Source: Yuukianura sp. NJ FZ-2021
Lineage: Eukaryota
Length of the DNA: 64,000 nt
Assembly (NCBI GenBank): GCA_046563655.1
Contig: CM102283.1
Location: 7,254,001 to 7,318,000 of the forward strand
Direction: 5' to 3'
The notes under the pieces were generated by a model. That model searched no databases, was not told the DNA's origin, and was given only the letters and a program-made list of their open reading frames with translations. This document shows, piece after piece, positions 1-59,600 of this stretch. Numbering within the stretch: position 1 is the first letter of the stretch; every line of letters starts with the position of its first letter. A program made the translations under genes and the position numbers.

Positions 1-5
1 TTTAG

Positions 6-599
6 TTTCGTCTTGCAAACTACACATCACGAATCCCGAAGATTTGAACAAACCGCCTGGACTCGACGCACAAAGCATCATTGGATTGATCATCTGGATT
101 GCTTGCGTGCTCTACTCCAGCATTCGAACATCATCGCAAGCCGCCCGTCTATCTCTAGCTACGAACCTGTTGAAAGATGATGGTGGGGCAACTGACGTGG
201 AAGGAGGTCGTGCCAGCGGAGGAGCAGAAGGAACTGATGGACATAAGGAGAAAGTATGGGACAATGAAGAGGAAGAAACGGCTTACTCATGGTCAATTTT
301 TCATGTTCTCTTTGCTTTGGCTACGCTCTACGTCATGATGACTCTGACAAATTGGTTCACGTAAGTACTTTGACTTACAAAGTAGTTTATTATGCTACTA
401 ATCCACTTATGTTCTGACTCATTTCATTAAATTCAAACCATTTTCTTGTAGCCCTGCATCCGACTTGCAAACTTGGTCAGCCAACACATCGTCAATGTGG
501 GTGAAAATCGTTTCGGCTTGGGTATGCGTTGCCCTTTACACTTGGACACTCGTGGCTCCAGTGTTGCTGCCGGATCGTGATTTTGGTAGAAACGACTAA
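6..599 (+). CDS. SERINC: Serine incorporator (SERINC/TMS1 family), last two exons (6-360, 452-599); 5' part lies outside the window
   Basis: Family motifs [34 protein letters not shown] and [33 protein letters not shown] intron 361-451 joins in phase 2. Confidence 0.95.
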
Positions 600-7661: not shown

Positions 7662-8578
7662 CACGACAACTTCAATACTGCACTACCTACACATTCCAAC
7701 AGTACTTAATCAATGTTTTTATGCAGAATACGAAAGTGGAAGTTCAGCATCTCGGCTCTTACCCAAAACGATTCGTAATAACTGGAATCTCCCTATGCGT
7801 CGGTTGGTAGCTCTCTCGATTAATCTTAGTCAACAACTATCAATGCCAATTCAATTAAGAAACGTAGCTTCCAAGATCAACAGCGATTACGATATGATAA
7901 AGTCGACAGACAACCGATGATACAGGAAGCGGAAGCGGAAAAAAAATTGTAAAACTTTTTATTACAGAAATAAAAACTCAAATGAACAAGTGATTGGCGC
8001 CTCGTTTGTCTCAAAGCGGTTCTACGCTTGAGGTGGGAATACGCTATTGCACACTTAAAACCTATTCCGTAAATATTTAGTTACATTACGTAATTATCTT
8101 GATAAGTTTCAATAAGTTTTAAAATTAGTATTCAAGTGCCACTCATAATGACACACATTACATGCTTTCAAGTGTAATTTTTTCCGCAGACAGTTTTATT
8201 AATGTATGGTATGAGCTAGTGGTCTGATTTGATTTGGCTGGCGGGAACCGTTTGAAATAAAATAAACTTGTAAAATTCTTTTGTAAAAAAAAAACAAAAA
8301 CAAAAACAAGACGCTGCTGACTACTGGCTGACACAAACACAACACACTGACACTGACAGCGACACTGTCACTGTGACAACATTTGTAAAAGTTAGTCACC
8401 CCAGTGGTCATTGTACATTGTAGTTACTGCACTGCAACGGACAGCGGAAAAAAAAAGAACTGACACTGGCAGTACCATTTAAATCTCAAAACGACGAACG
8501 CAGTCAAAAACCATAAAGAAGAGCCGAAGTTAGTAACTGTTTCACCTTGTAAAGTAAGTAAACCTATCGGACTTCACG

Positions 8579-11500
8579 ATGGGAAGTATCAAACTACTGG
8601 CCGACAGTGTACAAAGTACTATACGTTCCGGAGTCGTCATTACCAGTATGGCTCGTTGCGTCGAAGAGCTAGTACTCAACTCAGTAGACGCAAAAGCCAG
8701 CAGGATTTTTATCAACATCGATCTAGACGATTTCAATTTGGAGGTAGACGACGATGGACATGGTATTAGTAGAGACGACATGGAGTTGATCGGAACAAGG
8801 TAAGCAATGGCGGCTTAACTTTTTAGCCATACCGGCACCACATACAGTGTCGTTTTAGTATGTGGTTTTCATTCTCATTTTTTTGCCGTTTAGGTACGCC
8901 ACAAACAAATGCCACACTGTTTCAGACTTGACAAACCTGAAATACTATGGGTATCGCGGAGAAGCACTGGCTAATATCATCGACTTGTCTTCATCAGTCG
9001 AAATCTACTCACAATTTCAATCACTGGATCGCGACCGCGAAGTTTATTACAGAAAATTTAAACAAGGCAAGCCACACGGTCCTGTTCAACGTATCAGCAC
9101 CAGAAAACGATCATCTCATGGAGTTACAGTTATCATTCAAGGATTTTTATCACGCCTGCCTGTGCGACAGAGACAAATAGGCAATTTGGAAGTTGAACAC
9201 ATCAAGAAATTTTTGGAACGAATCTACATAATGAATCCAACTCTTCGCATCGATTTTAAGAATCAAGTACATCGTATTCTGCAAACCGTGTCTTTGAATT
9301 CCTCAGCAGAAGCATTCCAGAAGATGTACAACAAAAGCCTCAACGAAGTGTCATTGAGTTATGGTCGTTTCTGCTTCCAAGCTTGGTTTTCTACTGAGCT
9401 TCATCCTTCAAAGTCACTTCAACTGGTATACGTTAATAAACGTTACACATCGAGGAATGCTGTTCACCGAGCCTTGGATGAAATTCTTACTGAAGTTTTG
9501 GGCACCAAAAAGCGTCCAGATACGGAGAAGCATCATGCTGGAGGAAAACGTGAGAAAATGTATCCCGTTTTTGTTTTGAACATAGTCACGCCATTGACAG
9601 AGTATGACGTGACCCTGGATCCAGCAAAGTCGACCGTTGAATTTAAGAATTTGGACCTTGTGTTGGAGGGAGTGGAGGCCTTGAAAGTACTATTCCAAGC
9701 AACGCTTCGTTCCTGCAACAGAAATGACTTGTTGGCAAACGCCGGGTCAAAGATGTCTAATGCCGAATTACATGTTAACTCCAACTCGGATTCGCTGCCT
9801 CAGTACGGAAAATCTGTGTCGTCGAGGGCATTCAAGACAGCAATCCATGGAAACGTCGTAAAGCGGGTTACATCCGGTGGAGAATCACCTACGTCGACAA
9901 CGGACAATACAAACAACTCACAAGGGGAAGCTGCGTACGTAATTGATTCCCGTTAATTGAAATTTAATTTTTTTAAATGTTATCAACATACCAACTTTTT
10001 GTTTCTATTTTTAGTGTCAGGAATGGTTCAACGAAAAGCAATGACAGGCGAAATACCAACGGTTCCAGAGGACCAATGTCTGATGTAGATCCTAATTCAA
10101 AAATGGCCAAGTACAAGAAGCAGGATAAGCCGAAAATTCAACGTCACACGGAAACAACTACAGAAACAACGTTAACGACGGCGAAACAAACACAAATCCA
10201 GCCAGAGTCACAAGAACAAGTGCGGAGCGAATCAAAAAGTTCCAAGAAGAGAACCAAGCGGAAATCCGAATTGCCGTTATTCCCGAAAGGTTATTTTTTC
10301 AGTTATTCAGAAATTCAAATTCTTTAGTTTTTTTTTATTTTTATTATTATTTTTTTGTACTTTTGAATTTCAGAATACAACAAACGACTTCGCACTGCGT
10401 CACAGCTCAGACTTAATTCTGGAAATCAGTCAGCACTTTTGGATAAGATCAAAGAGTTATTCCCAGTTTTTCGTGAAGAAGGGCATGACAAGAATTCCAG
10501 TTCTAAACCTCCACGTCTGCCTCAGGAAGAGTCATCAAATCCGTCAACTCCCCCTCCGAGTGTCCAATTCGATAACGAATTTTCACAAAATGGCCGCGAT
10601 CTCCATTCTCCCTTTCAGCGTCTATGCCTCGCTAGAGAAAATGCTGCCGACAGTAGTGACGTACCAGCGTTACCTCATGACATTGAAGGAGGAGTAGAAA
10701 TTCAAATTCAAGGCGAAGGTATGTGGGATCCTCCATCTCGATTTTCATCATTACCGTCCGGCACCCGTGGATTTCCACGGGAACTGTCTGACGACCATTT
10801 CTGCCGATTAGTAGATAACCATTTGGGAGAAGTACGCAAGAACCTTGGTTTGCAAGACTTAGCCGAACATGCTGCAAATACTCTACGGCAGATCATTAAA
10901 CACCATGGACAAAAGGGAACTGGTCAGTTCAGAGATCAAGGTGAAGAACCGAAACAGCGAAGTCAAGGTCGTATATCTTTGGACAATGACACGGAGTCAG
11001 TAGTTTCGTCTATCTCTTCGTTCACGCCAGCTGGTGACATTCAAATCATGAATCCAGTGAAGCAGCCACCGACAACTGCTGAAATCATAGACTCGTGTCG
11101 TCGTAATCACAACGATCTCAACTACTCCAACAGGAATTTAATTACCTCCGGACCGTCTAACTTTTGGCCAGAAAATGAAGCTCGGGACAATGATCAGTTT
11201 TCTGAACAACGGCGACCAATCCACCATGGATTGCTGATGAACAACCGACCACCAGATTTGGACACGCCTAGAATCATTTCAAGTGAATATCGGTTTGAAA
11301 AGGAAGATCTGAAAAGGATGATGGTCATAGGTCAAGTGGATAACAAGTTTATTGTGGCCAAGTCTACGGTGAATCAGAACAACGCTCTTGTGCTGTTTGA
11401 TCAACATGCAGTTCATGAAAGAATCCGACTTGAGAAACTTTTGGAAGGTCAGTTAACTCTTATAATTTGATCCAATTTTGAATGTTTCATTATCAATTTG

Positions 11501-30900: not shown

Positions 30901-33900
30901 TTTTACCGCCAAAATGTCAAATATGGTCACGTGCGTGCTATATGCTGTGACAACTCAGTTATGCTGAAATTTTATGCTTCCATTTTCAAAATTGGAACAA
31001 GCAAGAGAATTTAGGTTATATTTTTGATTTGAAAAAAAAATTGATTTGTGATGCAAAACCTTTGTGGTGAATCATACGCTTCAAACGAAGAAAAAATTTT
31101 TGAAGGAAATGATTTTTGACTTCTAATTTTGGATTTTGAATATTCGGTGCTAATTTTGATTTTTTTTTGAAATTTTAGTACTCGAACGACTAGTGAGAAA
31201 CGAAGAGACGCTTTCCATCATCGACGTCTGCAGTCTAGCTCTCTACGGTACAGAAGCCATTCCCATCCGACTGAAAATACTCATTGTAAGTTTTCCAATT
31301 TTCTAAAATGTAAATTTGAAATTTTGAAAAAGAGGCTTTTGTTAGCGTATTATGTGTTGATGTAATGACATCGAGACAATGAACTCTTCGCACTTCCAAA
31401 ACCGCCATGTCACTTTCCCACACGTCTCCTTTGGACACACGTCTCTTTTGTCTTTTCCTAAAATTTTCTGCTGTTGTCTTTAATGGTTTTGGTGGCATTT
31501 CCTGATCTGCGTGTCTTCCGCACATTCCCGCTTCCTTCCAGAAATGATCTCAATTTCCGTCGTCATGTTCTTCCCTCAGTGGACCACTTTGGGCGTGTGG
31601 GAAATGGTCAATGTGCATCAGACTGAAAATGTTTCAGGAAAAAACGACACACAATGAACATGATTTTTCGATTCTTTCATGATATTTTCTTGTTCTTTTC
31701 AGGAAAGACTTCTGTCCACTTTACCGTCAGATGAAATTGACAAGATCCTCAAATCCTTTGGTTGGACACCACTCGACTTGGCCAGAGGATACATGATCCA
31801 AGTAAGAAAATGTTTAGCACTTGAATGTGTCCATCTCCAACAAAGAAAAACACACAAAAGTTGTCATTTTCTTAGAAAACATGATTTGATGGTGTCCATT
31901 GTACCACAAAAGCTACTTTTTTGCCACTTTTCCGCTTCAGTTCAATCAAAATCGAATGTTTTCTTTTGAAAAGTGCCGCGCGTTGACTTTTGATTGTCAT
32001 TTTCCAGTGTTCTGAGTCTTGTCACAGTCATGTCAGCCAGTTAAACCGACTATTCGTGTTGAGATTGTGAAGATTGTGATTAACCTAACTTTTGTAGATG
32101 GAGGGTTAAGCTTAAGAACATAATGACTCTGCGATGATGATGATCTTGTAGTGCATTTTCATTTCATTCCATGGTTGCATGTAAAAGTTCCTTTTTTGGG
32201 GGATGAAGAAGCACTTGATGATGACAGTCTGATTAGGGTGACACACGAAAGCTGAGCAGAAGAAGCGAAAAAGCACACGCAATCGTTTTGTTACGTCGAG
32301 ACCAGAAAATTAGGTGCTAACATTAAACTGTCACTTTCAAAAACTGGAAGTGAGAGATATGCTGATTACTAGAACCAAAAATGGAGTGTACGAGGTGTTA
32401 CAATGGATGTCAGTGACATTTGACACGATACCTGGTACGGACTGGCAGTCTGCACCAAGCGGCCAGATTTGACCAAAAAATGATTTCTTCCATTTCATAA
32501 AGCATTTCATTTTTTCAAAATTTTTAGAAACAAAAAAGTAAAGGCTTTCGCATAAATCAAAAAACTTCTACATTCCATGCGCCGGACTAAATTTTGTCTT
32601 ATATTCAGAAAATTTGTTAAATTCTTTAAAAAAATAAACAGGTTAAACTTTTCGGGCAATGGAAAAAATTTTAACGTGACTTCTTATGTCAGCTGAAATT
32701 CCCGAAGTTCTCCTGTTCCATATTAAACTATTTTTTGAATGTTCAAAAATTGATGTTATTATTTTTAATAATTTCTTGCTTTTATATATGATTTGTCCAT
32801 TTAACAAAACAAAAAATTTCAAGCTCTTCAGGACAAGGAAAACGTTAAACGGTTTATCTGATGAATATGAAAATTTTAACGTTGCGGTGCTCCGGAGTAA
32901 ATTTTGCTTTAAAATTACAAAAAAATGTAATTGCACAAAAAAATAACTAAACTTTTCGGCCGATTGAGAAATTTTTGAGGGTGACACTTTATGTTCTTTG
33001 GCTCAATACTTCAGTTGTATTTTTCTACCGTAGTCTTTTTGTAACCAACTACGCTAACAAAATTTTTGTTTTGGTTTTTTTAAAATAATTTTTTTAAACT
33101 TTTTTTTTTAGAACAGCGACGGACTGCCACTGAGTCGTTGGTCCATTTTGCCCAGAGAAGAGGAACCTTTAATTTTAGAACAATTTCATCGATTTCGCGC
33201 TACTCACTCCCTCACTATCGCTTTGTTGAAGAAGGACGTTGGGGGTGGGGGTGGATGGGGGGATGAGGGGGATGAAGAGGGAAGAAGTCACAGTCCAGCA
33301 GAAGACATGGACAACCTAGTTCTCAATCTATCTTCAGTAGGAGCCCCTTCGTCCTTGACCTCCGAGTCAGCAGAAGAGAGTGACGAAGACGAAGGGCTCA
33401 CGGCCGTTGACCTCAGTTCCAAGTCTGACAGATCTCGTGACTCCCGAAGTACTACCAGGGGGACTCAGAATGACCTTGACCTCAACAGGAAGTCGTCTTT
33501 AAGTCCCCCCTCTGTTCGAATGAAACCAAATTGGAGCCTACCGACCGCTCCCGTCGTCAGTACTTTACCAAACGGTAAGATTTTTTTAAAGACTATTTGT
33601 GCGAACTTGTCTGTCTGTCCGTCTGTCTATTGGTGATAATTTTTTTCTGGAGGTTGGACATTTCTGAAATTAATTGCTTTCAAAATGCCTCCGGCGCAGG
33701 ATTGTGTCCAAGCTCGTGCCATACTCTAACCCTCTAATTTTTGTAATTGTTTAGGAAAGAGGCGTGTGGAATGTTCAGTTTGCCTCAAGACGTTCTGTGA
33801 CAAAGGGGCTCTCAAGATCCATTTCAGTGCCGTTCATCTACGAGAGATGCATCAGTGTACAGTGTCAGGATGCAGCATGATGTTCAGCTCTCGGCGATCT

Positions 33901-34903
33901 CGCAATCGACACTCGGCTAATCCCAATCCCAAACTACACTCACCCCATACGAGACGAAAAATTAGTCCACATGATGGCAGGACATCGCAACCCCTGATTA
34001 CGTTCCCCCCGGGGTCATGCTATCCGCCGTTCGTTGGAATCATGGATGACCATGACCCTGACCCAGCGGAAATGTCAGGGTCAGAATCAGGTCAGAAAGA
34101 TGTCAGTCCTAGGCCAAGCTTATCTCCACCGTCAGTTGTGTCCGATGAAACGACAATTTTAAGAGGTGGAGCTAGAAAAAGAAAACTGGCCAACCCCATG
34201 CGAGTATCAAATTCGGCTGACCATGGTCCTGGAAGTGACCATTACCCGAGTGACCTCGTCAGACGACAACCCCAAGGTCACAAGTTCAACTTACCACTTT
34301 CTCCCTCCCGATCTGAATCAAATCCTAGTTCACCCAGTAAGTGAAAAATTCTCTTTTGGAATTTGTTTTTGTGAGAATATTGAAAATTGACGTTTGATCT
34401 AAATTTGGACTTGTTTTAAAATTTAGCCGAAGGTTCCAATCCCCTCCAATGCCTTGCCACCAAAGTCTTCAACTTTAACAATCACTTTCAAAATTTACAC
34501 CTCAATGTAAGTTGGCATCGACGAGTTGAAAAAGTTGACTACCATTGAAACGTCGAATTTTGAATTTTCGAACCTATTTTGACTTTTTGATCCAATTCTG
34601 ACGTTTTGAACCAATTTTGACCTTTGACCTTTTTGAACTTCAGGGTCTACCAGAACATTGGTCCGAGTCTGTCTTCACTCCGCGTCCTCGGCTCGACTTT
34701 TTATTTGAAACGAAGTCACTGCCCATCGTCCCTCCGCTTTTTGATGAAGATGGTCAAAGGGCATCAGTATAAGTTACTAATTTTAGGTAAATTTTTAAAA
34801 TTTCTGGCTATTTTTTGAAACTAAATTTCAAAATTTTGATTCGATTTTTACTTTTTTGCAGATTCTTCAACTCCATAGCTGCGTTTTAGCTCCACTTTCT
34901 TAA
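18925..34903 (+). CDS. BNC2: Basonuclin / disconnected (disco)-family C2H2 zinc-finger transcription factor. Exons: 18925-18933, 25890-25992, 31179-31285, 31703-31801, 33112-33574, 33755-34336, then probably 34427-34506, 34644-34766, 34862-34903
   Basis: Basonuclin N-terminal domain ([11 protein letters not shown]...[35 protein letters not shown]...[34 protein letters not shown]) and disco-type finger pair [53 protein letters not shown]; phases are consistent. The first exon and last three exons are less certain. Confidence 0.9.
21131..21368. promoter_or_regulatory. Four reverse CCAAT boxes (TGATTGG) in two pairs within a basonuclin intron
   Basis: TGATTGG at 21131, 21161, 21328 and 21362, with shared (c/a)gat(t/c)t-like flanks. 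Confidence 0.35.
23380..23687 (-). mobile_element. tRNA-derived Pol III element (SINE-like head or tRNA pseudogene) in a basonuclin intron
   Basis: Minus strand: A box TGGCTGCTTGG (23676-23666), B box GGTTCGAGTCC (23620-23610), acceptor-like stem CTGAAG/CTTCAG, then a GC-rich body and an A/C-rich tail near 23380-23405. Confidence 0.5.
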
Positions 34904-40567: not shown

Positions 40568-42704
40568 ATTTTAGCTATTTTTAGTTTTCTGTCAAAAATC
40601 TTGAACAGAGCTAGTATGCGATGTATCTACGCAGACATTGACAGAATTTTGGAAAATTTTTCGAAGAAAAAAGACTCGCCTTTGAAGCGGAACACTTTGT
40701 TTCAAATTGGCACACTTTTTGCAAATCTGTCGATTTCATCCCATGTGCCTTTCGGTTTGAAACTTTTTATCTGTTTGTTTCCTATCTCTTCCCCATTTTG
40801 TCCTTGGACTGAATCTTATGGACATAAAAAGAAACAAAGGACATATTTATGTCCATCACTTTTGAAACAATATACCCTACTTTCCCACTAAAAATGGAAC
40901 TTGGACATTGATGACTCTTAAACTACCTTCGTTTTTCAAAAAACTCTAACTTTTTTTAGCAGAGTTGCGAAAGTTCTTTGTGGAATTTTTGTTGTGAAAG
41001 TAAATGTAGGAAAGAGTCGTGACCTGAGTCGTGACCCTGGTCGTAAAAGTGGGATTTTTCTCATGATTGTGAGAGCCTAGCTGAATGATGAGGGATGTTC
41101 GTGTCATTAGGGACTGGTCCGGAAGTGATGTGCTTAGAGACACCGAGAAAGGCAATTTCCTGGAAGCAGCTCCCTTCTTCCACAAAAGTTCCATCTACTA
41201 ACTCCAACCGTCCAAAAGAAAGCAATTAGACAAGCTGTTTGGAGAGTCTCTTGAGACTCGTCACCTGATTGTCACTGTCTGACATCTCGTCTGTCCATCC
41301 TTTTCTGGAGAAAGTATCCCATGCCTGGACTTGAGCTGAAGAAAAGTCCCGGGAAAGTTGGAAGCCAATTATCAGAGGCAGCTCAGAAAGTCCAAACTTT
41401 CTCTTCTGTAATGGAATCTAATCCAATGCCAATCTTCTTCCCCTTTGACCCTCCTAAATGAAAGTCCCTGTCCACTTTCCTGGAATGGCACACAACCACT
41501 TGTCAACACTTGAGAAACAAAAGATCCACTGGGAATGCCCAACTAACTAGCCACTACATGCTCATCAACCGTTCATGACTCACCAAAAACGGGCCACTTT
41601 CACCACTTTTCCCGGGTTTTTATTCGGTGTCATTTCTTTCAAAATTTTGAGAAAAGTGTTTGTAATTAGGATTCTACTGTAATAAAGACAAAAGTCGTAA
41701 GACCATGTTTTATTGGCCTGTTTTGGTGAGATTGATGAGCATACTGGGAAATTAGAAGTTAAGAATTATGTTGCCACCAAGGACGATCCTGGACGTTACC
41801 GGAAGAATACCCCTGGTGACCATATAAACCATCTTTGTCCCTTTGCAGTCTTAATCACCTCCAACTTAATTAGAAGTTATTGTCACACCTCTGCACCATA
41901 AGACTACAAATGCCATTAGTTTCAAGTTCAAGGAAAAAAAGATACAGAAGATCGAGAAAGAAAATTTAGCACAACTGGACTGGTCTGGACAGTAGGCAGT
42001 GGCGAAGAGATTTTTACAGTTTGAATCAAATTTTATGCTACGTTTCTTAAAGCATTGTAGAGTGTAGACCAATCAGTGTAGAGTGAACGTTTCTAGAGCA
42101 TGTACTTGCGAATTTACGAATATTTGTGCCAGTTAAATTTTTAATTGCTTACAAAGATAAGTTTAACTTCGTCAGATGTTTTAGTTAGTTCTCTTCTATG
42201 AAACCAAGCATGCTCCAGATGCAAATGCAAAGATGCAATTTTCGCAATAGAAGGATAATCCAGCGTTGCGCGCCATCTCTTGCTCTAAAGTTTTCCAGAG
42301 CGTCTCACCGTTTGAAGTTTTGGCGGGAACTTACATGAAGAATGAAGTTTTGTCTTATAACGAAAACTACTACTACAAAATTACCTAACCTAACATGTCT
42401 TGGAGTGGGCTAGTGGAGTCATTCAACTCAACCTTTAATTAATTAGGTGATGTAATTGTAATTAACGATAATTGGCATCCGTATTGGTAGGAGAAGTACC
42501 GTAAGTTGATCGACTTTTGTAGTGAAAATTTGATGTCTTATGAAAATCAACCTACTAACTTGATCAGCTGTTTCGAAAAATCGGTTTAGATTTTTATAAA
42601 TTCTGCCAAATAACGCACCTTTAATCAGCCAGTCGCAGTATTCGATTTCGATTCGAGTAAACTGTTTTTTTTAAATTTCAGACTACAATTAACGAGTGAA
42701 AGGA

Positions 42705-45329
42705 ATGGAGCCATATTGGAAGAATCCAGGGGAAGGTCTGCTGGATGCTATTGATATACCATCGAAAAGTTACAACGTCACTTGTGCCACAGTGTCGGAG
42801 AAGCATCCGCGACTACTTCAAGTGGAATATCCAGGGTTCGTTGTAAATCCAGCAAACGCCGTCAGAACATTGGGTGGGATTCATAAAGTTTCTCAGGCAA
42901 GTTAATTGAGTGAGGCCTTTCAGATTTTTGCAACCCAATATTTAGTACTTATGAGGTAACATTTATGAAACAGATTTTGTCTAATCCGAAGAAAAAGTTG
43001 GAGGTTCGGTTCCGTCCAGGAGACGTCTACTGTAAACCTGCTTATGGAGAGCCGCATGTTACTTGCGGACTTCTCATCAAACTCCGTCGAAGAAAATCAG
43101 CCGCAGCGCAAGTGCCGAAACCTACAGAAGACGAATCTCCAGCCCTTATTGAGCTGTCACACTTACCCGACGACACGAACGACGATGAGGATGAATTTGA
43201 AGAAGATGACGATCATACTACGACTTCCCTCTTATCGAGAACTTGCGTTACTCCATACAGATTGATTGAAACGGGTAATAAGCAACAAGTGGCTGTCTTT
43301 GATGGACCATTACCAGATTCAATACGTGACGCTCTTGACAAAAAATTAAAGAAAAACCAGAACAAAGGGGAAGAAGAGCCGCAATCGAGCGATGATCGCT
43401 TTGAAGAAGGTATTCAGATTTTGAAAGAAGAAGAGAAGTTTTTAGCCGATCTGACATTAAAAAAACGCTTCGAGTCCTGTCTCAACGCGGAAGGGTTGTA
43501 CCGGAAGGACGTTCGGACGACTATCAACCAGAATCGGATATACCTCAAAGTTCCAAACAATTTGGCCGAAATACGAGCACCTCTTTCCAATCTTCAACTA
43601 GAAGTTTTGGGAGTTATTCCTAGAAAATACAAGTTTAGAGGTATGGTGAATTATAACTTTCTTGTTTTCCTAATGCTGATCAAGTTATACTGTGATTGTT
43701 GACTTTAGGGATGTGCGACTTTCAGTATCTGCCAATGAAGAGAACTAAGAAGCGTCACGTATCAATCCTCAACAAGATTCTTCCAGCATTTGGAAATCCT
43801 GACTTGCCAAACTCAAGTATTGACGACCTCCTCGTTTGTAAATTAGGAAAGGAAGGACATGACAAGCATATTCCTTCATTTCTTGTACCTAATATCATGT
43901 CACGTGTGGACAAACCTCATGTAAGTTTCTATATTCAATTGTGAATGTTAAAAACGTTTAGACTATAACAAATTCTCCATCGAACACGTTTGTCTGTTAC
44001 ACAGGAGGGACTCTTAGGCTTTTTAGAAGGCGGAATAGCCAGAGACCTTGCCAGAAAGCACAAAGTTCAAACGCTGTCCACAACTCGGGCGAAGCGAGTC
44101 GTTTACTCACATTTGTGCAACTTCCGAGTAACTAATAACAAGATCAATTCTTCGGAGTGCCTAATTCCCACTACTGCAATGCAGCAAGCTCAGGATGAAG
44201 CCGAGAAACGTCATCTTCTTGGACCGCAATTGGACTGCGTCAAAAAGTTATTCGAACAGCGTCCAATTTACACCAAGATCCAAATCGAACATGAATGTGA
44301 GGTGGGAAGATATTCTCTGAGATATCTGTTGCCACTTGTGGCCTACTTTGCGCTCAACGGACCTTGGAGAAGTTGCTGGATACGATACGGCTATGATCCA
44401 CGGAAGGACCGATTTGCTTTTCAATACCAATTGCTCGATTTCCGTGTTCCAAGTGAGTTTTCAAAAATAATTGGTATTCCATCTAAGTAATTACTGACTT
44501 AATTCTGTTTTAGATTCTTATCGTGTGTTGATGCAGCGTAAAAGGAATACTACGATTGAAGTGGAGAGGGAGCAACTGTTCCGTTATCTGCCGGACACCG
44601 TACCACCAAAATGTCAAATGTTTTACCAAGTAAGTTGAACTACGCCCTTGCAACGGAAAATGAACATGCAATTTATGATTCTTGATTTTTGGTGCCTTAG
44701 ATCTGTGAAATTAAAATCAAAGAAGTGGACGAAGCAATCAAAGCCGTGCATATCCGAATGGCTGACGATGAGCATAGGAAGTTTCATCCGCGTTTCGGAT
44801 TTTTGAATGAAGATCTCATTGAACACATTCGCTACTGCCTCAGCAGACAAATCGAAATGTCCTTATATAACCAAGGTATGAGATTTCATTTTCATTGGTT
44901 AATTTGTTACAGTTTTATAGTAATTTGATTAACTTTCGCATAAACACAGGCAAGATCCCGGCTGTAACGCTTCCAGAACTTCCACTTCCATCTGTCGATG
45001 GCACGAATTCTAAACCTCGCTTCGCTCAAGGCACAGTGCGTCGAGCTGGAGAAAAACGAAGATTTCGCCATAAACCAAGACCAAACCCATTACTGGCAGA
45101 TGAAGTTTCTAACCAGTCGAGCAATGTTACGGACTTGAAAATTCATGGACATTTTGTGGAGGACATGAAGGACGCCTTGGGAAACTCTGCCGAAGAAGAA
45201 GATGAGGAGGAAGATGAGGATGAGGATGATCTTGTTCTTCAAGAAGCCTTGGATGCTGCAACTGTGGATGACCTGGAAGATGACGACTTGGAACAAGATG
45301 AGGAGTTTCAGATTTTGGGACTGGAGTAG
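42705..45329 (+). CDS. GTF3C5: General transcription factor 3C polypeptide 5 (TFIIIC63/Tfc1, tau95), about 729 aa. Exons: 42705-42896, 42974-43640, 43709-43920, 44005-44452, 44514-44629, 44701-44875, 44950-45329
   Basis: VEYPGFVVNPANAVRTLGG, LEVRFRPGDVYCKP, FRGMCDFQY, LFEQRPIYTK, LLPLVAYFALNGPWRSCWIRYGYDPRKD and an acidic C-terminal tail. Confidence 0.93.
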
Positions 45330-45546
45330 TAGAGTTTAAAAAATTCAAAGAATTTCATAAAGAACTTTGGTAATAATTTATTGGAAACTTTCTATACAAC
45401 AGTAGACAAGTTAAGTATAAGTTAAGCCTCTTAATGCCACTTACAGGCCTAGAATTCTTAATTTTGAAAAACTTAATTATACTGCTTACAGTAAAATGAA
45501 AACTTTTTAGAATTCAAAACAGGAAATAATGAAAATTTATGATATT

Positions 45547-48500
45547 TCAGTGGGACCCTTGAATAGCCAAGAAGTGCATAAAATCCATTTTGTTTTGGAC
45601 TGGAGTACGTGTTGGTCTGCCCAAGTTTTTACGAGATCCACGACAGATTTTAATTTCAACCAAATGGGGTCCCTTGAGTCCTCTTTGCTCAATTGTTCTA
45701 ATGGCGGTTACAACGTCGTCATGACTCTTACATGTCCAAGTATGCGGGTATCCAGCGGCCAAAGCCACACGAGTAATTGAGAACGACTCTTTTTCGGCTG
45801 CAGTTGGTTGTCCACCGACAGAGTCATGAGCTCCGTTATTTAAGACAATGTGAATGAAATTCGGCGGAGAATGTCTAAAAATTTACAACAAAATTTCTAT
45901 TTTTTTGTTTCAGGTCACATTTTTTGAACAAATCTTACTGAGCAATCGTAGCCAGAGCTCCCATGTGCATAATAAGCGAACCGTCTCCGTCAAGACAAAC
46001 GACGCGTCGGCTAGTTTTCTGGAGCGCAATGCCCAAGGCAATTGACGAAGCATGGCCCATTGACCCGACAGTTAAAAAGTCCCGCTCATGGCCTTCTTCA
46101 CGTGACTTCCGAAGCTCAAACAGTTCTCTGTTTCGGACAAAAAAGTTAATTCAAATTTTGCCGCCGTTTTGAATTCAAATTGAGCCCTGGAGCCATCTTA
46201 GCTTGCAGCTAAATGAATGTTGATCGTACCTGGACAGCATACCGGTCGTACCGACGATGATGTCGCGATCATGCGCAGCAGTTATGACAGACTCGATGGC
46301 TTGTTCACGTGACATGTAAAGGTGCTCAACTTCGTCCAGAAGAGTCTTCTTGGACATTTTGTAAGGCGTAAACGTTTGTCTCTTGACAAGCAAAACGTAT
46401 GGAGTTCCAGTTCTTTCCAAATGTTTCTTGGCAGTGTACAGAGCTTGCTGGGCTCCTTCGATGTAATCTGGCAGTGGCTGGAACGGAATTCCCAGGGCAG
46501 CTAAAAACATAAACCATCAAAGAATCTAAATTTTGAAAAAGAGAAACTTTCCAAGTGAAATGTACAGGAACAAAAAGTTTTGGAATTCCTTTATACATTT
46601 TTTGTTTCAAGTCTCATAAATAATCATGAGATTCCGTTCTTAGTATTTTAAGCTTTTTAGAATATGAAAGCCTAAGTGGCTAACTTGAGTTGGGATTCCG
46701 CCTGAGGAAAACTTATTTGAGCGTAAAAGAATGGAGGAACAATGGAACTCTAAACCCTAAAAGAGAAAGTTTTGCAACTTTTATCATCATTTTTGGGTAG
46801 ATGAGTTCACGTTATTATTCTTTTTGTGAAAATTCTTAAATAACCTGCGCTTATTGTTCCGCGTGTGTCTTTTTTCTTTTCAACTTTTATGACGTAATCA
46901 GAACAAAGATGAAGCACAATACCAAAAATTATGAACAAAAAGAAAAAAAAAGTTTCCTACTTTTTTACTGTATTACATAAAATGTTATCGGGAGGTTTTA
47001 TGTAAAATTCGGAACAGCAGAAGTTATGTTCGTTTTTTGTGTTGTCCCAAATCAGGTTTGGATTTTCTTTGTTGTTGAAGAGAAAGTGATAAGGAGAAAG
47101 TCGCGGTGAACGAAATATGTTATGAGCGGAAGGAAAAAAATTGGATGTAAACTTGGCTTTAGAAAAACATGCTTTTTTAAGCCGTTTTTTTTAAAAGGAA
47201 ACCAAACAAGCTTATTTTCTTTTTTTTTACAGAAGAGAAAGTAAACAACACAAACGACGTAGAGTGAACCTTAGATGAGGTGATTTAGGAAATAATTGAC
47301 CTCATTTAATTTTTTTTTGCGTGTAGACGTACAAAAGTTAAGTAGTTTTTGAAAACGAGAAATTCTGGGCAATTCGAATGCTCCAATTTGCAGAATCCTT
47401 TATTCATGTGACTTATTTTTTTGACCTGCCCCAAAAAAGTTTTTAACTTGCTTATAATAGAGCAAACTTTCGTTCTTTTTTTTTTTCGAAAAATAACAAT
47501 AGCGTTTTCTTGGCACAAGCAAAAGAATGTGACACAACGTTCCAGGAATCTTGGATTTTTTTTAACAAAAAAGAAAGTATCTTTTGTACCGTGTGAGTCA
47601 ATGATTCAAGTTACAACACAGACGCATTTTTCCGCTCTCTGGATTTCTACAAAGATTTTTTGGCAAGGTTGACTGCCTTCAGGCTGTCACCGACACCTTT
47701 CACTGCACTTCCACTTTTTTCGAAAAGAAAATCCACTTAAAAAAATAGAGTGAAAGAATGCTTTCTCCTCTTTCTGCCCCATTGCACTTCAAATATTAAT
47801 TTTCTCATCGTGGGCCACATTTTGCTTCGCCGAACCATATAAACCCAAACAGTTTTCCAAACTAACAAAAAAACAGAGTTTTTACGCCTCACTTTCCTTC
47901 AGGGTTTTTTCGGAAGTTTATTTTTGGTCAAAAACAAGATTTTACGCCAATTGGGATATTAATCAAGTTTGAAGGGCGGGAAGATCTTTGAATGAGATTT
48001 TTGTTGTTGCTGGGTAACAGGATTTGATTAGTGACAAAATACGCGGGTAGGGACTGTATGACAGGCTGAGTTAGTCTGAACCCGGCTAAAGTTAGGTTAT
48101 AACATACACGGCCACTTGTCACTTTCAGTTTATATCCTCTCTGGACTTTCTGGAGCGGAAGTGCCTCAATTTTCCTGACTTTCTCCATGGTGATCTCTAG
48201 TGAAAGTGGAGCATGCAGGAAAGAGCAGGAAATAAAGGACTCTGAAGTTAATCTTCATTAGGATTCCCATTGTTACTGTTTCTTTTATGTTAACATAACA
48301 ATGTTAAGTGAACCGAAACAAGTCCAAAGTTCATCAGTTATGCAAATTGGAAATTGTGACACGTTCCAAATATAAACAGCATCGTGTGTTGCTAAATTAA
48401 AACGGATGACGCAGGTTCTAGGTGACATTTTCAAAATTAGTTTCTAAAACACTTTAAGTTGACAAAGCGAATTGGATCAAAAGAATTGAGAAAAGTTGAG

Positions 48501-50491
48501 TTTAGGCAAAACAAAATTCAAAGGTTTCGAGAGTTTGAGAAAAAAGAAAATTAACACTTGAAACCCCTAAAATTTGAAGCACAAAATTGGAGTTTATTGG
48601 AAATGAACCAAAAATAGGAAACGGAACGAGTGATTTTGAAAGTCTGGGGTGGAAAAAAAGTGAATGTGTTCGAGATTTTGTTGATTCAATCAAGAAAAAA
48701 AATATGAAAAATAATAAAATTTCAAACCATTGAATGCCATTTGTGTTTCAATTTGAATCGCAATTTCCTCTTTTCAGAAGCTTATATCATTTGAGTTTAG
48801 ACTGACAATGTTGGCAATTTGTGAAAATTGGATCATTCCAATTTTGGAATATTAGGTTCTGTTCTGCTTCCTTTTCGAAACTATTTCTCTAAATTTTGTT
48901 TTTCAATTTTCAAAACCGACGCATGGAAACAGGAAATTGAAAGTGTAGTGACTTGAATACATAAAATTCCTTCGGTAGCAAAAATATATGAAATTTTTGA
49001 AAAGTACTGACCTAAGAGTCCGGGAGTCACTTGACCTTGGGCACGATGCTGCGGTTCATCGCGCTTTCCTGGTTCGCCTCTCCAGCCAATCAGAACTAAC
49101 ATCGGAATTGAATAGACTTCGGGGGCACAAAGGCTGACCTTGAAAAGGAGAATGGCAGTGAAAATTTTTTTTTGAAAAAAGCGGGAATTTGAAAAGGTCA
49201 TTCGACTTTTTTGAAAAAATTGACTTACGAGTGGGTTGACAGCATTTCCAAGTCCAGAATTTTGCATGTAAACCATTGAAGCTCTTCCGGTTGCCAAGTG
49301 ATATCCAGCAGCAATAGCAATTGCAGCTCCCTCGTTACACGTAATCACGTGCTTGTCATCAGCCACTTTGTCAGACACGTATGCACAAAAATCTGCGACA
49401 TGGAATTCAAATTTCGTAAAATTGGAATTTTGAACTGTTTCAAAAATTTTATATCAACTAGAAATTTGCTGACCTTTCAGCAGCGAGTCCGGCACGCCAG
49501 TGAAAAAGTCAATGCCAATATCTCGAACAGCATCGTAGAATGCCGCTGGATCTAGAAAGTCCCGCACCAGTTCAGTTAGCACTCCAGCATCTTCATTTCG
49601 CATTTTCTGTTCCAAGTATTGCTGTGTAAAAGCGTTTCAAAAAAGTAAAGTCTTTAAAAAGTGACAGACACATAAATCATAAGCCCATTTCATAAAAATG
49701 CAGAAACTTGATGCTTTGAAAAATCTTTTATGGCAAAATCCAGATCAAATGGAGCATGAAAGCGATTCTGAAGAATCCAATCCATTATGCTGTTGATTAG
49801 GGTCTGTGCCAAAAACGTTTCAAGATTTCAGACGCTCATAATTTTTATTATTCATAAAATCTAGCAAGTGAAAGCTGAAGAGTTAGGAAATTTCGAAAAG
49901 TTCATTGAACCGAGAAACTAAAGAAGCTAAATACGTCAGAAAATTTGCTAGATTTGGTGACGAGTAGTGTCTGCCTGGATTCTGGAAGTCAAGTGCTAAA
50001 CATGCCTTTAATCTTTTCAAAATCCCAAAAGTCAAGTGCTAATTAAATTTCAGTGCTACTGTGAATCGGGTCAGATTTCTGTTTGTAATTGCAATATTAA
50101 GTGGAGACGGAGAGTGACATCAAGCTAGCTAAAACAATAAGCTTTTGTTAAAAAAATAGAACATTCTGCACATCGTACTATGGAAAATTGACAGCAGAAT
50201 GTAAATTGGTTTTCACATTGTCTAAACTTTTAACTGTAACTAACTCTTAATTTAAAATTTAGATCTCAATAACTTTATTAATTTGTACTAAATTACCTGC
50301 TCTTGACTTGGTACGGTAGTTGAAGTGGAGCTGAACCGGCAAATTACAGATTTGGAACTGAGGGAATGTCCTTGAACCTGGAAAGTCCAAGTATTAGGTT
50401 GGCAGCAGGTCGCTATTTTGTGCGGAAAAATGACATTTTGAGCCAATCGGAAACTGGTTCTGAGCAGTGACGACGAAGTCCACGAAGTCAT
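45547..50491 (-). CDS. ppd: Phosphonopyruvate decarboxylase (ThDP-dependent), about 473 aa, with an N-terminal presequence-like extension. Exons: 50491-50297, 49621-49474, 49392-49229, 49138-49012, 46500-46230, 46127-45939, 45874-45547
   Basis: Ppd/AepY signature segments IDFFTGVPDSLLKDF, NEGAAIAIAAGYHLATG, VYMQNSGLGNAVNPL, IGWRGEPGKRDEPQH, TTGMLSRELFE, DFLTVGSMGHASSIALG; ThDP motif DGDG...LNNGAHDSVGGQPT; LGRPTRTP; six GT-AG introns all in phase. Confidence 0.95.
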
Positions 50492-53400
50492 TGTCTAGCC
50501 AGTGAGTCTTTTGTGCACTTTAGACAGATTGCAAATCTAAGAGGATCAGACACATCAAATTTTCAAAACGCAAGGAACTATTCACCCTTCAAAAACACTA
50601 AAAATTGTCATGCATAAAATATCAAGTGAATGAAGATCTTCCAGACTGATATTCGCATCATTTTCTGGAATTTTAGAAAAGTAAGTAAAAAGTGAAAGTA
50701 TTGCTTTCACTTTCAATTCTTATAACTCAACAGATCATATCCACTTTCTGTCAAAGTAACAAAATCTGAATCAAAATATTTTTGGAATCAGAACTTTGAT
50801 TTTTCTCTATTATTGTTATGTTCTATGATGAAAATTATTCTGTGATTGAAGTTTGTTTTTCAAAACCCTTACCCGAAAATAAGTTTAAAACGAAAACAGA
50901 ATTTGCGCGAATTTTAAAAAATGTGCTTACCGTTTTTTTTTAGTTTTTTCTTGGTATGTCTTGTTGATCACACAGTTACGTATCGCATGGAAATATGGAA
51001 ATGTAAACTGTCAAAATTTTGAATTGAAACTTAGGCACTGTTGTAAGAAAGACAACAATTGTCAATAAAAAATGTCCTTCAATTCCTCCTTGAACGTCCA
51101 CGTTTGTAATTAAATGCTAGTTAGCCTGAAGTGTTCTGGTACTCTGCTGACGTTGAACTAAAACTTGTAATTAAACGCACAGTATGAAGTTGTTCCTTAA
51201 CCAAAACTTATTAGATAAAGTATGAGTTGGAATTAGAGGATGTTGGTCAGGATTTTATGAGTGACGAGTTCAAAATTTGCTGACTGTGACACTTTATGAT
51301 AACTTACTAGCTCTCTAAAGTGTATGAACAGACAACGTGTTCCATTTCCATTGTAATCGATTGAGAAAACACGACGACAGTCGACAGACGAGGGGATTTT
51401 TTCAGCAAAACACGAGCGAAATAATGTTTGTAAGAGCAGGGAAGTAACGTTAGCGTGCTTTCGTTCTGACCATGACTGGACTAGAGCTTATCCATCGATT
51501 AAATATTGAATTCAGTAGGACGTTGGCAATTTTTGAAAATAAAAACCTCGAAAGCGTATTTTCTTAAAAAATACACATAGTATACACTCATCGCAGCGTT
51601 ACAAGAATTCATGCATTCGGATAGACAAGGACAGGGTTTGGGACAAAAAGAAAACAAAAATTTGAAAGTGAAAAATAAATTGAAACAGTAGCTTATTTTG
51701 AAATATTTATGAGATTTTGGAGCCAGAAGGGCAAAATGCATAACAAAAACGACAACGACTTTGGACCAAAGGACGGAAGTGGAGCTGAAGTCCCCGGAAC
51801 TTTCCCTTATGCTTCAAACCACAACGAAATGCTTTGGTTTTTGGAATTGGTTCACAATGTTAAGCCGTTGCAGTCAGGTGATGATAATTGAAAGTTTAAA
51901 ATAAAAATGACTGTTAATTGAAATTACAAAAATACAATTTTTGGCAGCATTATGATGCCGCAGGTAATGTGTGTTACGCAACCCATGAAATTGGATTCCA
52001 TAAGGAGCAAAACTGCAAACTTTGTTTTTAGATGACTTCTACGTCTAGAAGTTCATAAAAGTCAATGTACTGAAGGACTTGGCCTTCCAAGGGCTCAGTC
52101 CGAAGTAATAATAAAGTCTTCGCAACGATGACTTCTTCTGTACCGTTTACACGCCACAATTCACAGAAACTCAATCTTCATTTCCTACAAAACAGGAGTT
52201 CATGCGCTTGATTAATTTTTATTACGTTTGCTTCTTTCTTAATAACTAACTCCAGGATATACATTTAGACTCGAAATGAAACAACTTTCTTGGAGCAGAA
52301 AGTCTAGCAGTTAGCGGAAAATGTTTGGCGCGAAATTTTGATTTCACGGGCTGGCTGTCTTCCTTATTTGATTTCAGACGAAAGAAGAACACCTTCAATT
52401 TCCTCCAGAGGCAGTACAAAGAGGTGCAACCTTTCGCTTTTCTAATATCTGCATTAGGCTGAGCTGGAAAATAATTTCGTGGTTTTGAATTCGAATTCGG
52501 ACAAAAAATATGAAAAAGAGGTGGCTAATCAGACACAGAGACGTAGGTTGATTTTGGACAATGCTAATAAATGTGCGGGAATGCTGGTAGAAGGATAAAC
52601 AAAATGTGAGGTATGAAGGAAGATTTTGTAATTTTGAAAATAATGGGGGAAAACGTACTTCTGTTTGTAGTGTAATCTTAAAAAGATCAAGGGAGTAGTG
52701 AAATTTTTGAAATTCCATTTCTACGATTGCTGGCATAAGCAGCGTCTTTGAAACAAAATTTTTTGCGAACAAAATAAATCAACCTTTGTACAAGAGAGGT
52801 CTGGGCTACGCCAAAATTTCCTAGCATTGGGCATATCATCATGTATAAATTAATGTTGTTTTTAAAAATTTTATTACCTTACTTCATTTGAATTTGACAA
52901 TAGAAAGTATAAACACAAGTAAAAAAAAACATGAAGTGAAGACATGAAACACTTTTTGTTTTTAGACAAAACTTAAATGGTCGAAACAAAAACAGTAAAG
53001 TTCTAACTTCAGGAATTTTTCCTTACGATTTTTCATAAACATTTGTATCACGCGTCTTTTAAAATAGCACTTAAAATTAGTAAACCAACAAGACAATTTT
53101 TATTTATACTTATACATAACTTCTAAGTAAATATTTAAAGAAAAACTAGAATTTACCATTTCTTTTATAGTCTAAACTTAGCTTGTACTTGTACCTAAAA
53201 TCTATAGTTTTCATTAGATACACTAAAATTAATTAAAACCACAATTAAACTATAGTTTTAAAATGCACTGAAAAGCTTTGCATTTATGCTTTATATTTCT
53301 TACAATTTAGAAAACTACGTGATTTTGGCACCTTTTAACACCGCAGTGGCTGGAGAACTGATGTAGCGGCAACTTTGTTTCAATTTCAAAGCCATCGCGT

Positions 53401-56600: not shown

Positions 56601-59600
56601 AAGGTGATGTGTACAAATTTCTTTTCAGATGCTTTTCTGACTTTCACTTTTACAAATGCTCATTTCTTTTTTTCAAAATTCACAAGTCCTCGGACTGAAA
56701 ATCCACATTCATAATTTAAAGTCAGTAGCGAGAAGGGAAGCGGCATCATCATTTGTAAAAACAGAGACAAAGGAAAAGATGCTACGGAATCTCAAAATCC
56801 AGGATTAAGGTTCCAGGAATAATTTTGACAATGACGAAGCGATCGGATTTTGAGCGTCTTTAGTTTCAAGTTGTTCGTAGAATGGCTGAGACAAAGGAGA
56901 TGACTGATGTAAATTCATAATTCACTGGAAAAAAAAATAGAATGAAAAAGAAGAATGCTTGACGAAGGCGAAATCAGGGAAGATGAGCTGGCATTCTTCA
57001 AAGAAATGAAAATGCTACTTAATTGGCAATTAATAACTTTGTAAACTCATCAACGCTCTTTCGCTGGGTTCAACTTTCACTGTGAGCACACTAATGAAAG
57101 AAAAACTGAATTTCCGTAAAAAAAATAATTTTGGAAAATAAATTTCATTTTTTTGAAAATCTATTGTTCAAACAATATGTTTGGCATCGTTGAGATTCAG
57201 TTGGGGTAAATTGTACGTTTTGGCAAAAGCTGGTGCAGAATTTGAATTTTTGCTCTTTCTTTGTTCACTCTTTCCCTTCTCTTCTCATTTGTGAATTTTC
57301 AAAATTCAACTTGATCTAGGGAAGTCTCCAAAATTCTAACATCGAGGTCAATTCCAGCACCAACAGTCAAGCGTTAATCGATTAATCAATTCCTCGTATC
57401 TTCTGTCAAGATGATTGTCAAAGAATAGTAAGTTCAAATTACAAACTTTCGTTAATTAAGTTAAATTAAACTTCATTTCTGATTTTGATTTCTTCCAGCC
57501 GAATTGTTATGCCTTTGACTATGGAAGAGGTGAGACTATAAGTTTGAAACTTTTCTTATTTTAACTAATTTGGAATCGATTTGATAATTGTCAATTTGTA
57601 TTCCATCCAAGTACCAAACTGCTCAACTGTACTCGTGTGCCGTAGCTTCAAAGGAGGAAACGGGTGGTGGTGAAGGTGTCGAAGTCATTCGAAATGAATT
57701 CTTCGAAGACATTCCATTAATGGGTGGGAAGTACCATGAGGGACAGTACACTGAAAAGATCTACCACCTCTCCGGACGAATCCCGAGGTTTATACGTATG
57801 CTGCTACCGGCAGAGTCGTTACAAATCGTTGAACAAGCTTGGAATGCCTATCCCTACTGTAAAACAGTTATCACGGTAAAGTTGTCTAGAACTGCATTTG
57901 AAACAGAAGGTTTGAATGTTGTTTAATTTATTGTTAATTGTTACACAGAATCCTGGGTTCATGAAAGCTGATTTTCAAATCACGATAGAGTCGCTTCACT
58001 TGCCCGGTAGAGGTGACGTTGAGAATGCTCTTAACCTTCCCCCAGAGGTACTTGCTCACAGGGAGGTGATTAATGTGGATATTGCCAATGACGCAATGAC
58101 AGAAGCTGACTACCGTGAAGCTGAAGATCCTACTCGATTTCATTCTAGTCTTACCGGACGAGGACCATTAACTGGCAATTGGATCTCGGAGGTAAAACTG
58201 TTGTCATAAAAGACAGTAACACAGATCAACTCTTGAGTTTTAATCAGCTGTTGTCATCTTTTTCAGACTACCCCGGTGATGACATGTTACAAAGTAGTGT
58301 CAGCAGAGTTCAAATGGTTTGGGTTTCAGAATCGAGTTGAAAATCTAATTCATTCGTCTGAACAGCGACTGTTTACCAGATTTCACAGGTTAGTTACTCT
58401 GTCTACATCGACAGCTTCACTTCACACTCTAAACATCAAAACATGGACGTCATTACCTGCCTTTCTATACACTAAACTTTGGACTGACGTGTGTTTTAGA
58501 CAAATATTTTGCTGGATTGACCGCTGGCATGATCTCACCCTTGATGAAATACGAGAGATAGAGGAACGCAGCCGAGATGAACTCAACGAGGTAAGTAATT
58601 TCGGATCAAAATACTGACCACAGTACAGTGTGGTTTTAGCAAATCGAATTTAAAATTGCCTTCATTTTTGTTTAGGCTCGTCTCAACGGACAAACCAGAG
58701 GAATGCAAATTGAGCAACAACGCTAAAACTAAATACTCATTCAGCATAAAACTTCAACGTACGAGTCCTCCACCACCTCCGTAGTCCGTACACTTACCCA
58801 AATCAGGATTTTTCATTCCGAACTAACTTTGTAGGACTGGAATGCCAGTACAGCCCTAGTATAATACAAATTACAAACTAATTGTCATTTGTTAAATCTA
58901 TTGTTTAACGTTTTCGCTTTTACCTCACAAACAGAATTTCTAAAATGTTCAATTGCGACTTCAATTAGTCGCTTCTGGAATTTCTTTTATGTAACTCATC
59001 ACGTCAGTGCATTTTACGTCAAACGTGTTACGTGGTGTTGTTTACTTCAATTTCTTAAGCAAAGCCAGACGTGGACGCCCAATTACCACAACATTATAAG
59101 CACCACTGGCGGCATATCCATTGAGCCACTGCTGGATTCAGTTAGTTACGACACCATCCACGAATAGCTCTGTTTTTCTGAACATGTTGTAGACTTTTTG
59201 AATTGAGCCATTAGACGCTTAGCCATTATCCCAAGACCAAGCAGCAGGAGCCCATGAAATGTGAGTCCATTCAGCCGAAATTTGTGTTAAGGGTTGAAGT
59301 GGTGAAAGCAGCGCGCTTTGCAGCGATTCTTCGACCTTCCCTTTTGAACTAAAGTCTAACAAAAGCCTAAAGTGAAACCTTTCACAACTTTCTTCTCCTT
59401 AGGCATCACCGAAAGGAAGGATCATCTCCAGTTTTTTCTGGACAAAGTTGGCCAAAGGATTATTACAAAGAAGCCTTTGGCCTTCTTTGAAATCCTGAAA
59501 GGCGGGAGTTTCAAAAGTATTTCCCGCCGTTATGCTAGGTTATGGTTAGGTTGGGCTTATCCCGCCATGTTGTGATTTACACCATCCAAAATCCAATGTA

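Follow-up and report, generated by a model that had tools for sequence, protein, structure and literature searches.

An intact phosphonopyruvate decarboxylase gene in the springtail Yuukianura belongs to an old animal family

We analyzed a stretch of 64,000 nucleotides (hereafter the window) from the springtail Yuukianura sp. NJ FZ-2021 (assembly GCA_046563655.1, contig CM102283.1, positions 7,254,001 to 7,318,000). Its minus strand carries, from position 50491 to 45547, a gene for a single-chain, thiamine diphosphate (ThDP)-dependent phosphonopyruvate decarboxylase (Ppd). The gene has seven exons and six introns (Table 1), and its 1422 nt of coding sequence comprise 473 codons followed by a TGA stop codon (45549-45547). 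Exon ends were set from the sequence after reading the stop-to-stop minus-strand frames of positions 45000-51000, and the exons were then joined by their coordinates. Introns 1 to 6 measure 675, 81, 90, 2511, 102 and 64 nt; all are of the GT..AG type, with phases 0, 1, 0, 1, 2 and 2. In an alignment of 12 proteins (the window protein, nine other eukaryotic and two prokaryotic rows), the six exon junctions show no insertions or deletions relative to the 11 orthologs. A first reading of the bare sequence (the original prediction) had given the start, the end, the number of exons, a 2.5-kb intron and a length of about 473 amino acids, all of which are correct according to the joined-exon model. 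Exon 1 has no Pfam or NCBIfam family above cut-off; the residues at its tail can be aligned with those of Orchesella and Folsomia in the 12-row alignment. Within the long intron 4, the five open reading frames (ORFs) of at least 65 amino acids that lie wholly inside it have no Pfam match, and the gene region, this intron included, contains no Rfam family and no repeat of at least 25 nt.

Table 1. Features of the window (positions count from its first nucleotide; aa, amino acids of the Ppd protein)
Feature	Position	Strand	Remarks
Ppd exon 1	50297..50491	-	aa 1-65; ATG 50491-50489; acid-free, Ser/Thr-rich leader and onset of conserved N-terminal block
Ppd exon 2	49474..49621	-	aa 66-114; holozoan-only block ending TELVRDFLDP, plus GVPDSLLK motif
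Ppd exon 3	49229..49392	-	aa 115-169; N-terminal ThDP pyrimidine-binding domain; NEG (Glu135) at 49328-49336; TIGR03297 profile 16-69, 78.8 bits; PF02776, 30.6 bits
Ppd exon 4	49012..49138	-	aa 170-211; GWRGEPG..DEPQH block; TIGR03297 profile 70-111, 57.2 bits
Ppd intron 4	46501..49011	-	2511 nt, phase 1; position common to bivalve-like gene L129
Ppd exon 5	46230..46500	-	aa 212-301; linker region; TIGR03297 profile 113-198, 41.3 bits
Ppd exon 6	45939..46127	-	aa 302-364; C-terminal ThDP diphosphate-binding domain; GDG at 45980-45988; TIGR03297 profile 200-261, 97.3 bits; PF02775, 41.7 bits
Ppd exon 7	45547..45874	-	aa 365-473 and TGA; NN at 45835-45840; HDSVGGQ and LGRPTRTP blocks; TIGR03297 profile 264-360, 99 bits
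GTF3C5 (TFIIIC subunit 5, Tau95)	42693..45329	+	Tau95_N and Tau95 domains (PF17682 and PF09734) over 42693-45326; TAG 45327-45329
Serinc	2-596	+	Pfam
Carboxylesterase	1458-2890	-	Pfam
Fip1	6904-7323	-	Pfam
MutL/PMS-type mismatch repair gene	8558-11467	+	Pfam
C2H2 zinc finger	33730-34341	+	weak Pfam match under cut-off
Phosphatidylinositol transfer protein (PITP)	57588-58614	+	Pfam

The product carries its ThDP domains in one chain and lacks the middle domain of the larger ThDP enzymes: PF02776 falls on exon 3 and PF02775 on exons 6-7, within a core of approximately 380 amino acids. The ThDP motif that the original prediction had noticed in a single-chain Ppd is indeed there, as GDG-X25-NN (GDG at amino acids 349-351, NN at 377-378), and is split by intron 6. 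The N-terminal domain contains NEG at amino acids 134-136. We take the Glu of NEG to be the cofactor-activating residue and GDG/NN to be the ThDP/Mg motif. The best match of exons 3-7 is TIGR03297, the NCBIfam equivalog for Ppd, and the match is collinear over profile positions 16-360; the bits added over these exons amount to 373.6 (a rough sum of separate exon scores) where a whole protein needs 312.5 to pass. All eight animal or holozoan orthologs scored as whole proteins exceed the cut-off of the same model (408-472 bits). The next-best family matches are the sulfopyruvate decarboxylases ComD and ComE (TIGR03845, TIGR03846), which have the same ThDP fold. Their models give only 34.8, 60.7 and 32 bits on the exons of the window, and all eight orthologs stay under their cut-offs (147.95 and 221.5), with 81-116 bits for the seven full-length proteins and 69 and 113 bits for the gappy Folsomia model. 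By these exon and ortholog scores, the window gene is not assigned to ComD/ComE.

The residues that define the family are kept throughout. Against a reference of 43 chosen rows (31 eukaryotic and 12 prokaryotic, with the gapped springtail models P0003 and P0005 left out), the window protein retains every one of the 77 invariant columns and of the 109 columns that are conserved in at least 95% of rows. An AlphaFold model of a protein 78% identical to the window Ppd (encoded on metagenome contig L081, see below) has a mean predicted local distance difference test score (pLDDT) of 84.5 and a confident core, and its Foldseek matches are ThDP enzymes. The nearest solved structure is RhiE/RhiF, the two-subunit Ppd of Bacillus subtilis (PDB 9IZ3, 9IZ4), which matches an Orchesella ortholog with E = 1.9e-21 (beta) and 8.5e-17 (alpha); by Foldseek, its beta chain covers the C-domain of the L081 model with a template modeling (TM) score of 0.90 at 31% identity. 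RhiE/RhiF is split in two chains and only distantly related to the window Ppd. One sequence search and one Foldseek search returned no single-chain Ppd among solved structures. The window gene is an intact single-chain Ppd ortholog, built like its relatives.

We scanned metagenome contigs with a 296-amino-acid Ppd fragment (P0001), which yielded 71 loci. One of them, L081 (1549 nt), holds a single uninterrupted frame of 471 amino acids that is 78% identical to amino acids 36-473 of the window model in a single match. Its DNA runs unbroken through junctions 3 to 6, the sites of introns in the window, and the protein match covers all six junctions. L081 looks like a cDNA-like contig of a related springtail. 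Three others (L116, L118 and L130) are short genomic contigs with the Ppd gene of a close relative; they are 84-95% identical to the window per exon, and their introns, of 68-88 nt, are much shorter and lie at the same positions. Most of the differences that separate the window from L081, L130 and L116 are synonymous: the proportions of nonsynonymous differences (pN) are 0.170, 0.059 and 0.069, and those of synonymous differences (pS) are 0.738, 0.730 and 0.834. Synonymous divergence (dS) is saturated, so we give pN and pS rather than a dN/dS ratio. The gene is kept by purifying selection. That it is a decaying or silent relic is extremely improbable: the lack of a family match in exon 1 would fit a pseudogene, but the 473-codon frame is unbroken, the six splice sites are canonical, every invariant residue is present, pN lies far under pS, and the intronless, cDNA-like contig of a relative covers the same exons.

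How widely is this gene distributed? In a homolog search with exon 7, animal proteins rank first and prokaryotes come after. The closest database match among those listed is 75% identical over its full length, or 80% identical in the case of the fragment P0001; the protein of the window species is therefore not itself on record. The window Ppd can be aligned with its orthologs along its entire length; it is 74.9% identical to that of Orchesella dallaii (P0002; 423 amino acids), 66.3% to that of Orchesella cincta (P0003) and 67.4% to that of Folsomia candida (P0005). Identity to most other named animal orthologs is 60-63% (Ischnura and Lingula, 56-57%; Acropora palmata, 59.8%), and to prokaryotic Ppds 51-55%. 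A profile of nine arthropod orthologs was then used to list the best 120 of 8000 scored candidates. Arthropod names stand on 24 of these 120, and many rows are already called "phosphonopyruvate decarboxylase." The arthropods comprise Collembola (two Orchesella species, Folsomia), Orthoptera (Anabrus, Gryllus, and Schistocerca, P0248), Blattodea including termites (Periplaneta, Diploptera, Zootermopsis, Cryptotermes), Phasmatodea (eight Timema rows, Bacillus rossius), Ephemeroptera (Cloeon), Odonata (Ischnura, Hetaerina, Ladona), the barnacle Pollicipes and the centipede Strigamia. Molluscs (Mytilus included), cnidarians, rotifers, annelids, a brachiopod and Capsaspora follow them in the same listing. 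No member of Holometabola or Hemiptera is found among the best 120 of 8000, which is weak evidence of absence. The novelty implied by the original prediction does not hold up, as databases already contain Ppd-named proteins from Orchesella cincta, Folsomia candida and 22 further arthropod rows of the best 120.

The annotated animal Ppds (O. dallaii P0002, O. cincta P0003, F. candida P0005 and Schistocerca P0248) belong to the same length class as the window protein and have the same domains and the same N-terminal block, described below. Unlike the public O. cincta and F. candida models, that of the window is complete: both public models lack stretches matching window exons 3-4, which are present in the window and in O. 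dallaii. These gaps are probably mispredicted exons in the public annotations. Two proteins of Rotaria sp. (P0313, P0314; 775 amino acids) combine a PF05454 domain with a complete Ppd, either through a genuine fusion or because two gene models were merged.

We built a maximum-likelihood tree from 54 chosen rows; it is unrooted, and supports are given as bootstrap/Shimodaira-Hasegawa approximate likelihood ratio test (SH-aLRT). The window groups with Orchesella (98/75), within a clade of Collembola (100/100). Successively larger groups are Hexapoda (85/78), Hexapoda plus the barnacle (91/81) and Metazoa (97/86), and a branch of 100/99 separates eukaryotes from prokaryotes. Animal orders are recovered, Polyneoptera has support of 100/99, and holozoan protists are placed outside Metazoa. 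The centipede stands apart from the rest of the arthropods, and support for deep branches among animals is weak. The springtail proteins P0002, P0003 and P0005, which form the 100/100 clade with the window, also have in common with it a 4-residue insert in exon 5 (amino acids 264-268, approximately positions 46331-46345, in the T-L/V/I-L-D-E region). Among the 12 aligned rows only the window, Orchesella and Folsomia have this insert; it is absent from the nine others and therefore marks the springtail clade.

Intron positions, whose comparison the original prediction had called for, connect the springtail gene with those of distant animals. In the close relative (L130 and L116), introns lie after amino acids 114 (phase 1), 169 (0), 301 (2) and 364 (2), the places of window introns 2, 3, 5 and 6. 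A contig whose closest match is the ortholog of the bivalve Mercenaria (L129, 82%) has introns after amino acids 114 (phase 1), 158 (0), 211 (1), 307 (2) and 343 (0); those at 114 and 211 are identical to window introns in position and phase, while the remaining ones do not coincide (springtails, 169, 301 and 364; L129, 158, 307 and 343). A contig closest to Zootermopsis (L150, 92%) has introns after amino acids 114 (phase 1) and 158 (0), the former again common to the window. In L129, L150 and L130, a CAG with in-frame stops ahead of it directly precedes the similarity at amino acid 66, as at the acceptor of window intron 1. The intron before amino acid 66, seen from one side only, is thus probably a third position in common with L129 and a second in common with L150, in addition to the two and the one established above.

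The N-terminus distinguishes eukaryotic from prokaryotic Ppds. In the 12-row alignment, approximately 90 residues precede the bacterial-type start in every eukaryotic row: a variable leader and then a block, Q.EQ..RN...TELVRDFL.P. The block is seen in the window protein and all nine other eukaryotic rows (Capsaspora shows a recognizable second half only, from TELVRDFL.P onward) and is absent from both prokaryotic rows. Bacterial and archaeal single-chain Ppds (TIGR03297) are otherwise collinear with the window protein over profile positions 16-360, and the window protein has their invariant residues, GDG-X25-NN and NEG included; the springtail gene differs in its extra N-terminal residues and in being split by introns. 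AepY of Bacteroides fragilis is, going by its name, presumably one of these bacterial single-chain Ppds.

The tree of Ppd agrees with that of the animals. Together with the intron positions common to bivalve-like and termite-like genes and the holozoan N-terminal block, this means old vertical descent rather than gene transfer. The original prediction had left two origins open, ancient retention and a domesticated horizontal transfer; the former is borne out by the tree, the intron positions and the holozoan-only block, and a transfer into arthropods is not supported. Springtail genomes are reported to hold transferred genes, and prokaryotic Ppds are 51-55% identical to the window protein over the whole core, as might be expected if a bacterial gene had entered springtails or arthropods and gained introns later. 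However, all eukaryotic rows lie on one side of the 100/99 branch with holozoan protists outside Metazoa, the introns after amino acids 114 and 211 are common to the bivalve-like gene, and the N-terminal block extends from Capsaspora to springtails and is missing from the two aligned prokaryotes. Codon use is like that of neighboring genes, and the word "phosphonopyruvate" is absent from three supplementary files of the Folsomia genome paper. We regard such a transfer as very improbable. A recent transfer is already contradicted; a much older one, into an early holozoan or eukaryote, may be compatible with the unrooted tree.

The surroundings of the gene are those of an ordinary animal gene. 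Ppd and GTF3C5 are convergent, with 217 nt (45330-45546) between their stop codons, and their 3' untranslated regions must therefore be very short or overlapping. The Tau95 domains and the stop codon of GTF3C5 confirm the tail-to-tail neighbor named in the original prediction. The GC content at third codon positions (GC3) of the Ppd coding sequence is 0.445, compared to 0.38-0.46 in eleven neighboring coding frames, and relative synonymous codon usage (RSCU) correlates with r=0.71. Given this neighbor-like codon use and the tail-to-tail GTF3C5, the Ppd gene is native, embedded among ordinary animal genes. That the stretch is a bacterial contaminant of the assembly, which the original prediction had also rejected, is next to impossible: the gene has six spliceosomal introns with a GC content of 0.33 (0.39 in the window as a whole), GTF3C5 lies 217 nt away, and other animal genes occur in the same 64 kb. 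A look for the C-terminus of GTF3C5 on five short related contigs gave no match.

The leader of the window protein (amino acids 1-62, positions 50306-50491) contains no Asp or Glu, 5 Lys or Arg and 22 Ser or Thr, and residues 1-42 of the L081 protein have pLDDT <50 and are disordered in the AlphaFold model. In two protists, phosphoenolpyruvate (PEP) mutase and Ppd are targeted to mitochondrion-related organelles, according to the portion of the preprint cited here (bioRxiv 10.64898/2026.09.23.753574). The springtail leader resembles a mitochondrial presequence, and import of animal Ppd into mitochondria would be reasonable because of the acid-free leader, the disordered N-terminus of the L081 protein and the organelle targeting in protists.

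From family biochemistry, the enzyme is predicted to convert 3-phosphonopyruvate to phosphonoacetaldehyde and CO2. This step would pull the unfavorable equilibrium of PEP mutase forward, and a transaminase would then yield 2-aminoethylphosphonate (AEP) for phosphonolipids or the decoration of glycans. The acid-free leader would send Ppd to mitochondria, and the PEP mutase that the pathway requires would be encoded elsewhere in the genome. We consider it probable that the window gene is a native springtail ortholog of single-chain, ThDP-dependent Ppd, which came down to animals by vertical descent from an early holozoan ancestor.

Animals with known phosphonate chemistry provide a context for this prediction. 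In the coral Acropora digitifera, the sections of a 2013 study cited here describe an animal-encoded Ppd, with six introns like that of the window, together with PEP mutase and a candidate AEP transaminase, and conclude that corals make carbon-phosphorus (C-P) compounds (PMC3640398). The coral thus has a full AEP gene set, whereas in the window Ppd alone is in view. In the survey reported in the same sections, which covered Hydra, Drosophila and Homo, Ppd was at that time found in no metazoan genome beyond two anthozoans (PMC3640398). AEP is present on locust N-glycans (described in 1993), jellyfish O-glycans and gastropod glycolipids, as cited in part of PMC6994554, and ceramide-AEP makes up 29 mol% of the phospholipids of Mytilus haemocytes in the data quoted from PMC9174665. 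Orthologs of Ppd are present in our listing in kin with such chemistry, namely the locust Schistocerca and Mytilus. Our literature searches found no paper that connects springtails or insects to Ppd or PEP mutase, some queries being broad, so that only the best-ranked matches were covered; of the titles listed among papers since 2014 that contain "phosphonopyruvate decarboxylase," none concerns arthropods.

A PEP mutase-like ORF is present in 70 of 80 fetched prokaryotic Ppd loci, directly beside Ppd in the two loci checked; none adjoins the window Ppd. One type of PEP mutase occurs in 69 of the 80 loci (L001-L080), is fused to a cytidylyltransferase in the two checked, and scores 151.5 bits versus PDB 1m1b, which we take to be the crystallized PEP mutase of Mytilus edulis. 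An unfused PEP mutase (L010:4381-5220) scores 383.8 bits versus the same structure. Given this difference in score, the closest prokaryotic kin of animal Ppd may not be those of animal PEP mutase. A PEP mutase search among representatives at 50% identity listed 150 unnamed proteins, with no recognizable animal cluster, and the ESM Atlas returned bacterial clusters only.

Several points weigh against the account given above. Substrate specificity is read from family membership, and the TIGR03297 figure of the window itself is a sum over exons. The case for mitochondrial targeting is built on the composition of the leader and the analogy with protists. In principle, L081 might come from an intronless copy in a genome and not from a transcript. 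As the original prediction had remarked, neither PEP mutase nor AEP transaminase is visible in the window: 231 of its 240 stop-to-stop frames of at least 65 amino acids (the nine over Ppd exons were excluded) showed neither a PEP mutase nor a class-V aminotransferase domain in a scan that short exons would escape. A homolog search with the Mytilus-like PEP mutase domain of L010 gave no protein identifiable as springtail, since 120 of 120 listed were unnamed or bacterial-named. This last result, together with ComD and ComE being the nearest other families, is what one might see if the Ppd were real and expressed but acted on another 2-oxo acid (e.g., sulfopyruvate), or worked without a host PEP mutase on phosphonopyruvate from microbes or diet. 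On the other hand, the Ppd equivalog match is far stronger than those to ComD/ComE, all 109 highly conserved family columns are kept, and orthologs occur in Mytilus, rich in AEP lipid in the data quoted (PMC9174665), and in a coral for which the cited sections describe the full gene set (PMC3640398). This alternative seems to us unlikely, and we prefer the native, vertically inherited Ppd with its family activity.

What does the gene mean for springtails and for animals in general? The window Ppd adds no new kind of enzyme or pathway; it is a real but ordinary member of an old animal Ppd family already annotated in many invertebrates. Its value lies in supplying a complete and clean model of the gene for a lineage with gapped public models, and in adding to the evidence for an old, vertically inherited animal Ppd. 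A wider reading, which we offer tentatively and rate somewhat below an even chance, is that PEP mutase and Ppd formed an ancestral, mitochondrion-targeted holozoan pathway that was kept in springtails, mayflies, dragonflies and polyneopterans and lost in Hemiptera and Holometabola and in vertebrates. It is suggested by the lack of holometabolan or hemipteran names among the 24 arthropod rows (best 120 of 8000), the presequence-like leader and the precedent in protists, a thin basis. Should it be true, the animals would make AEP glycans or lipids on their own, and such compounds would be widespread among early-branching hexapods and the soil fauna. Should the remaining steps of the pathway be present, the gene would bear on the origin of AEP on insect glycoproteins, and springtails would supply phosphonates from an animal source on land. 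Springtails count among the most numerous arthropods of the soil, and a complete pathway in them would have a modest bearing on the cycling of phosphorus in soil.

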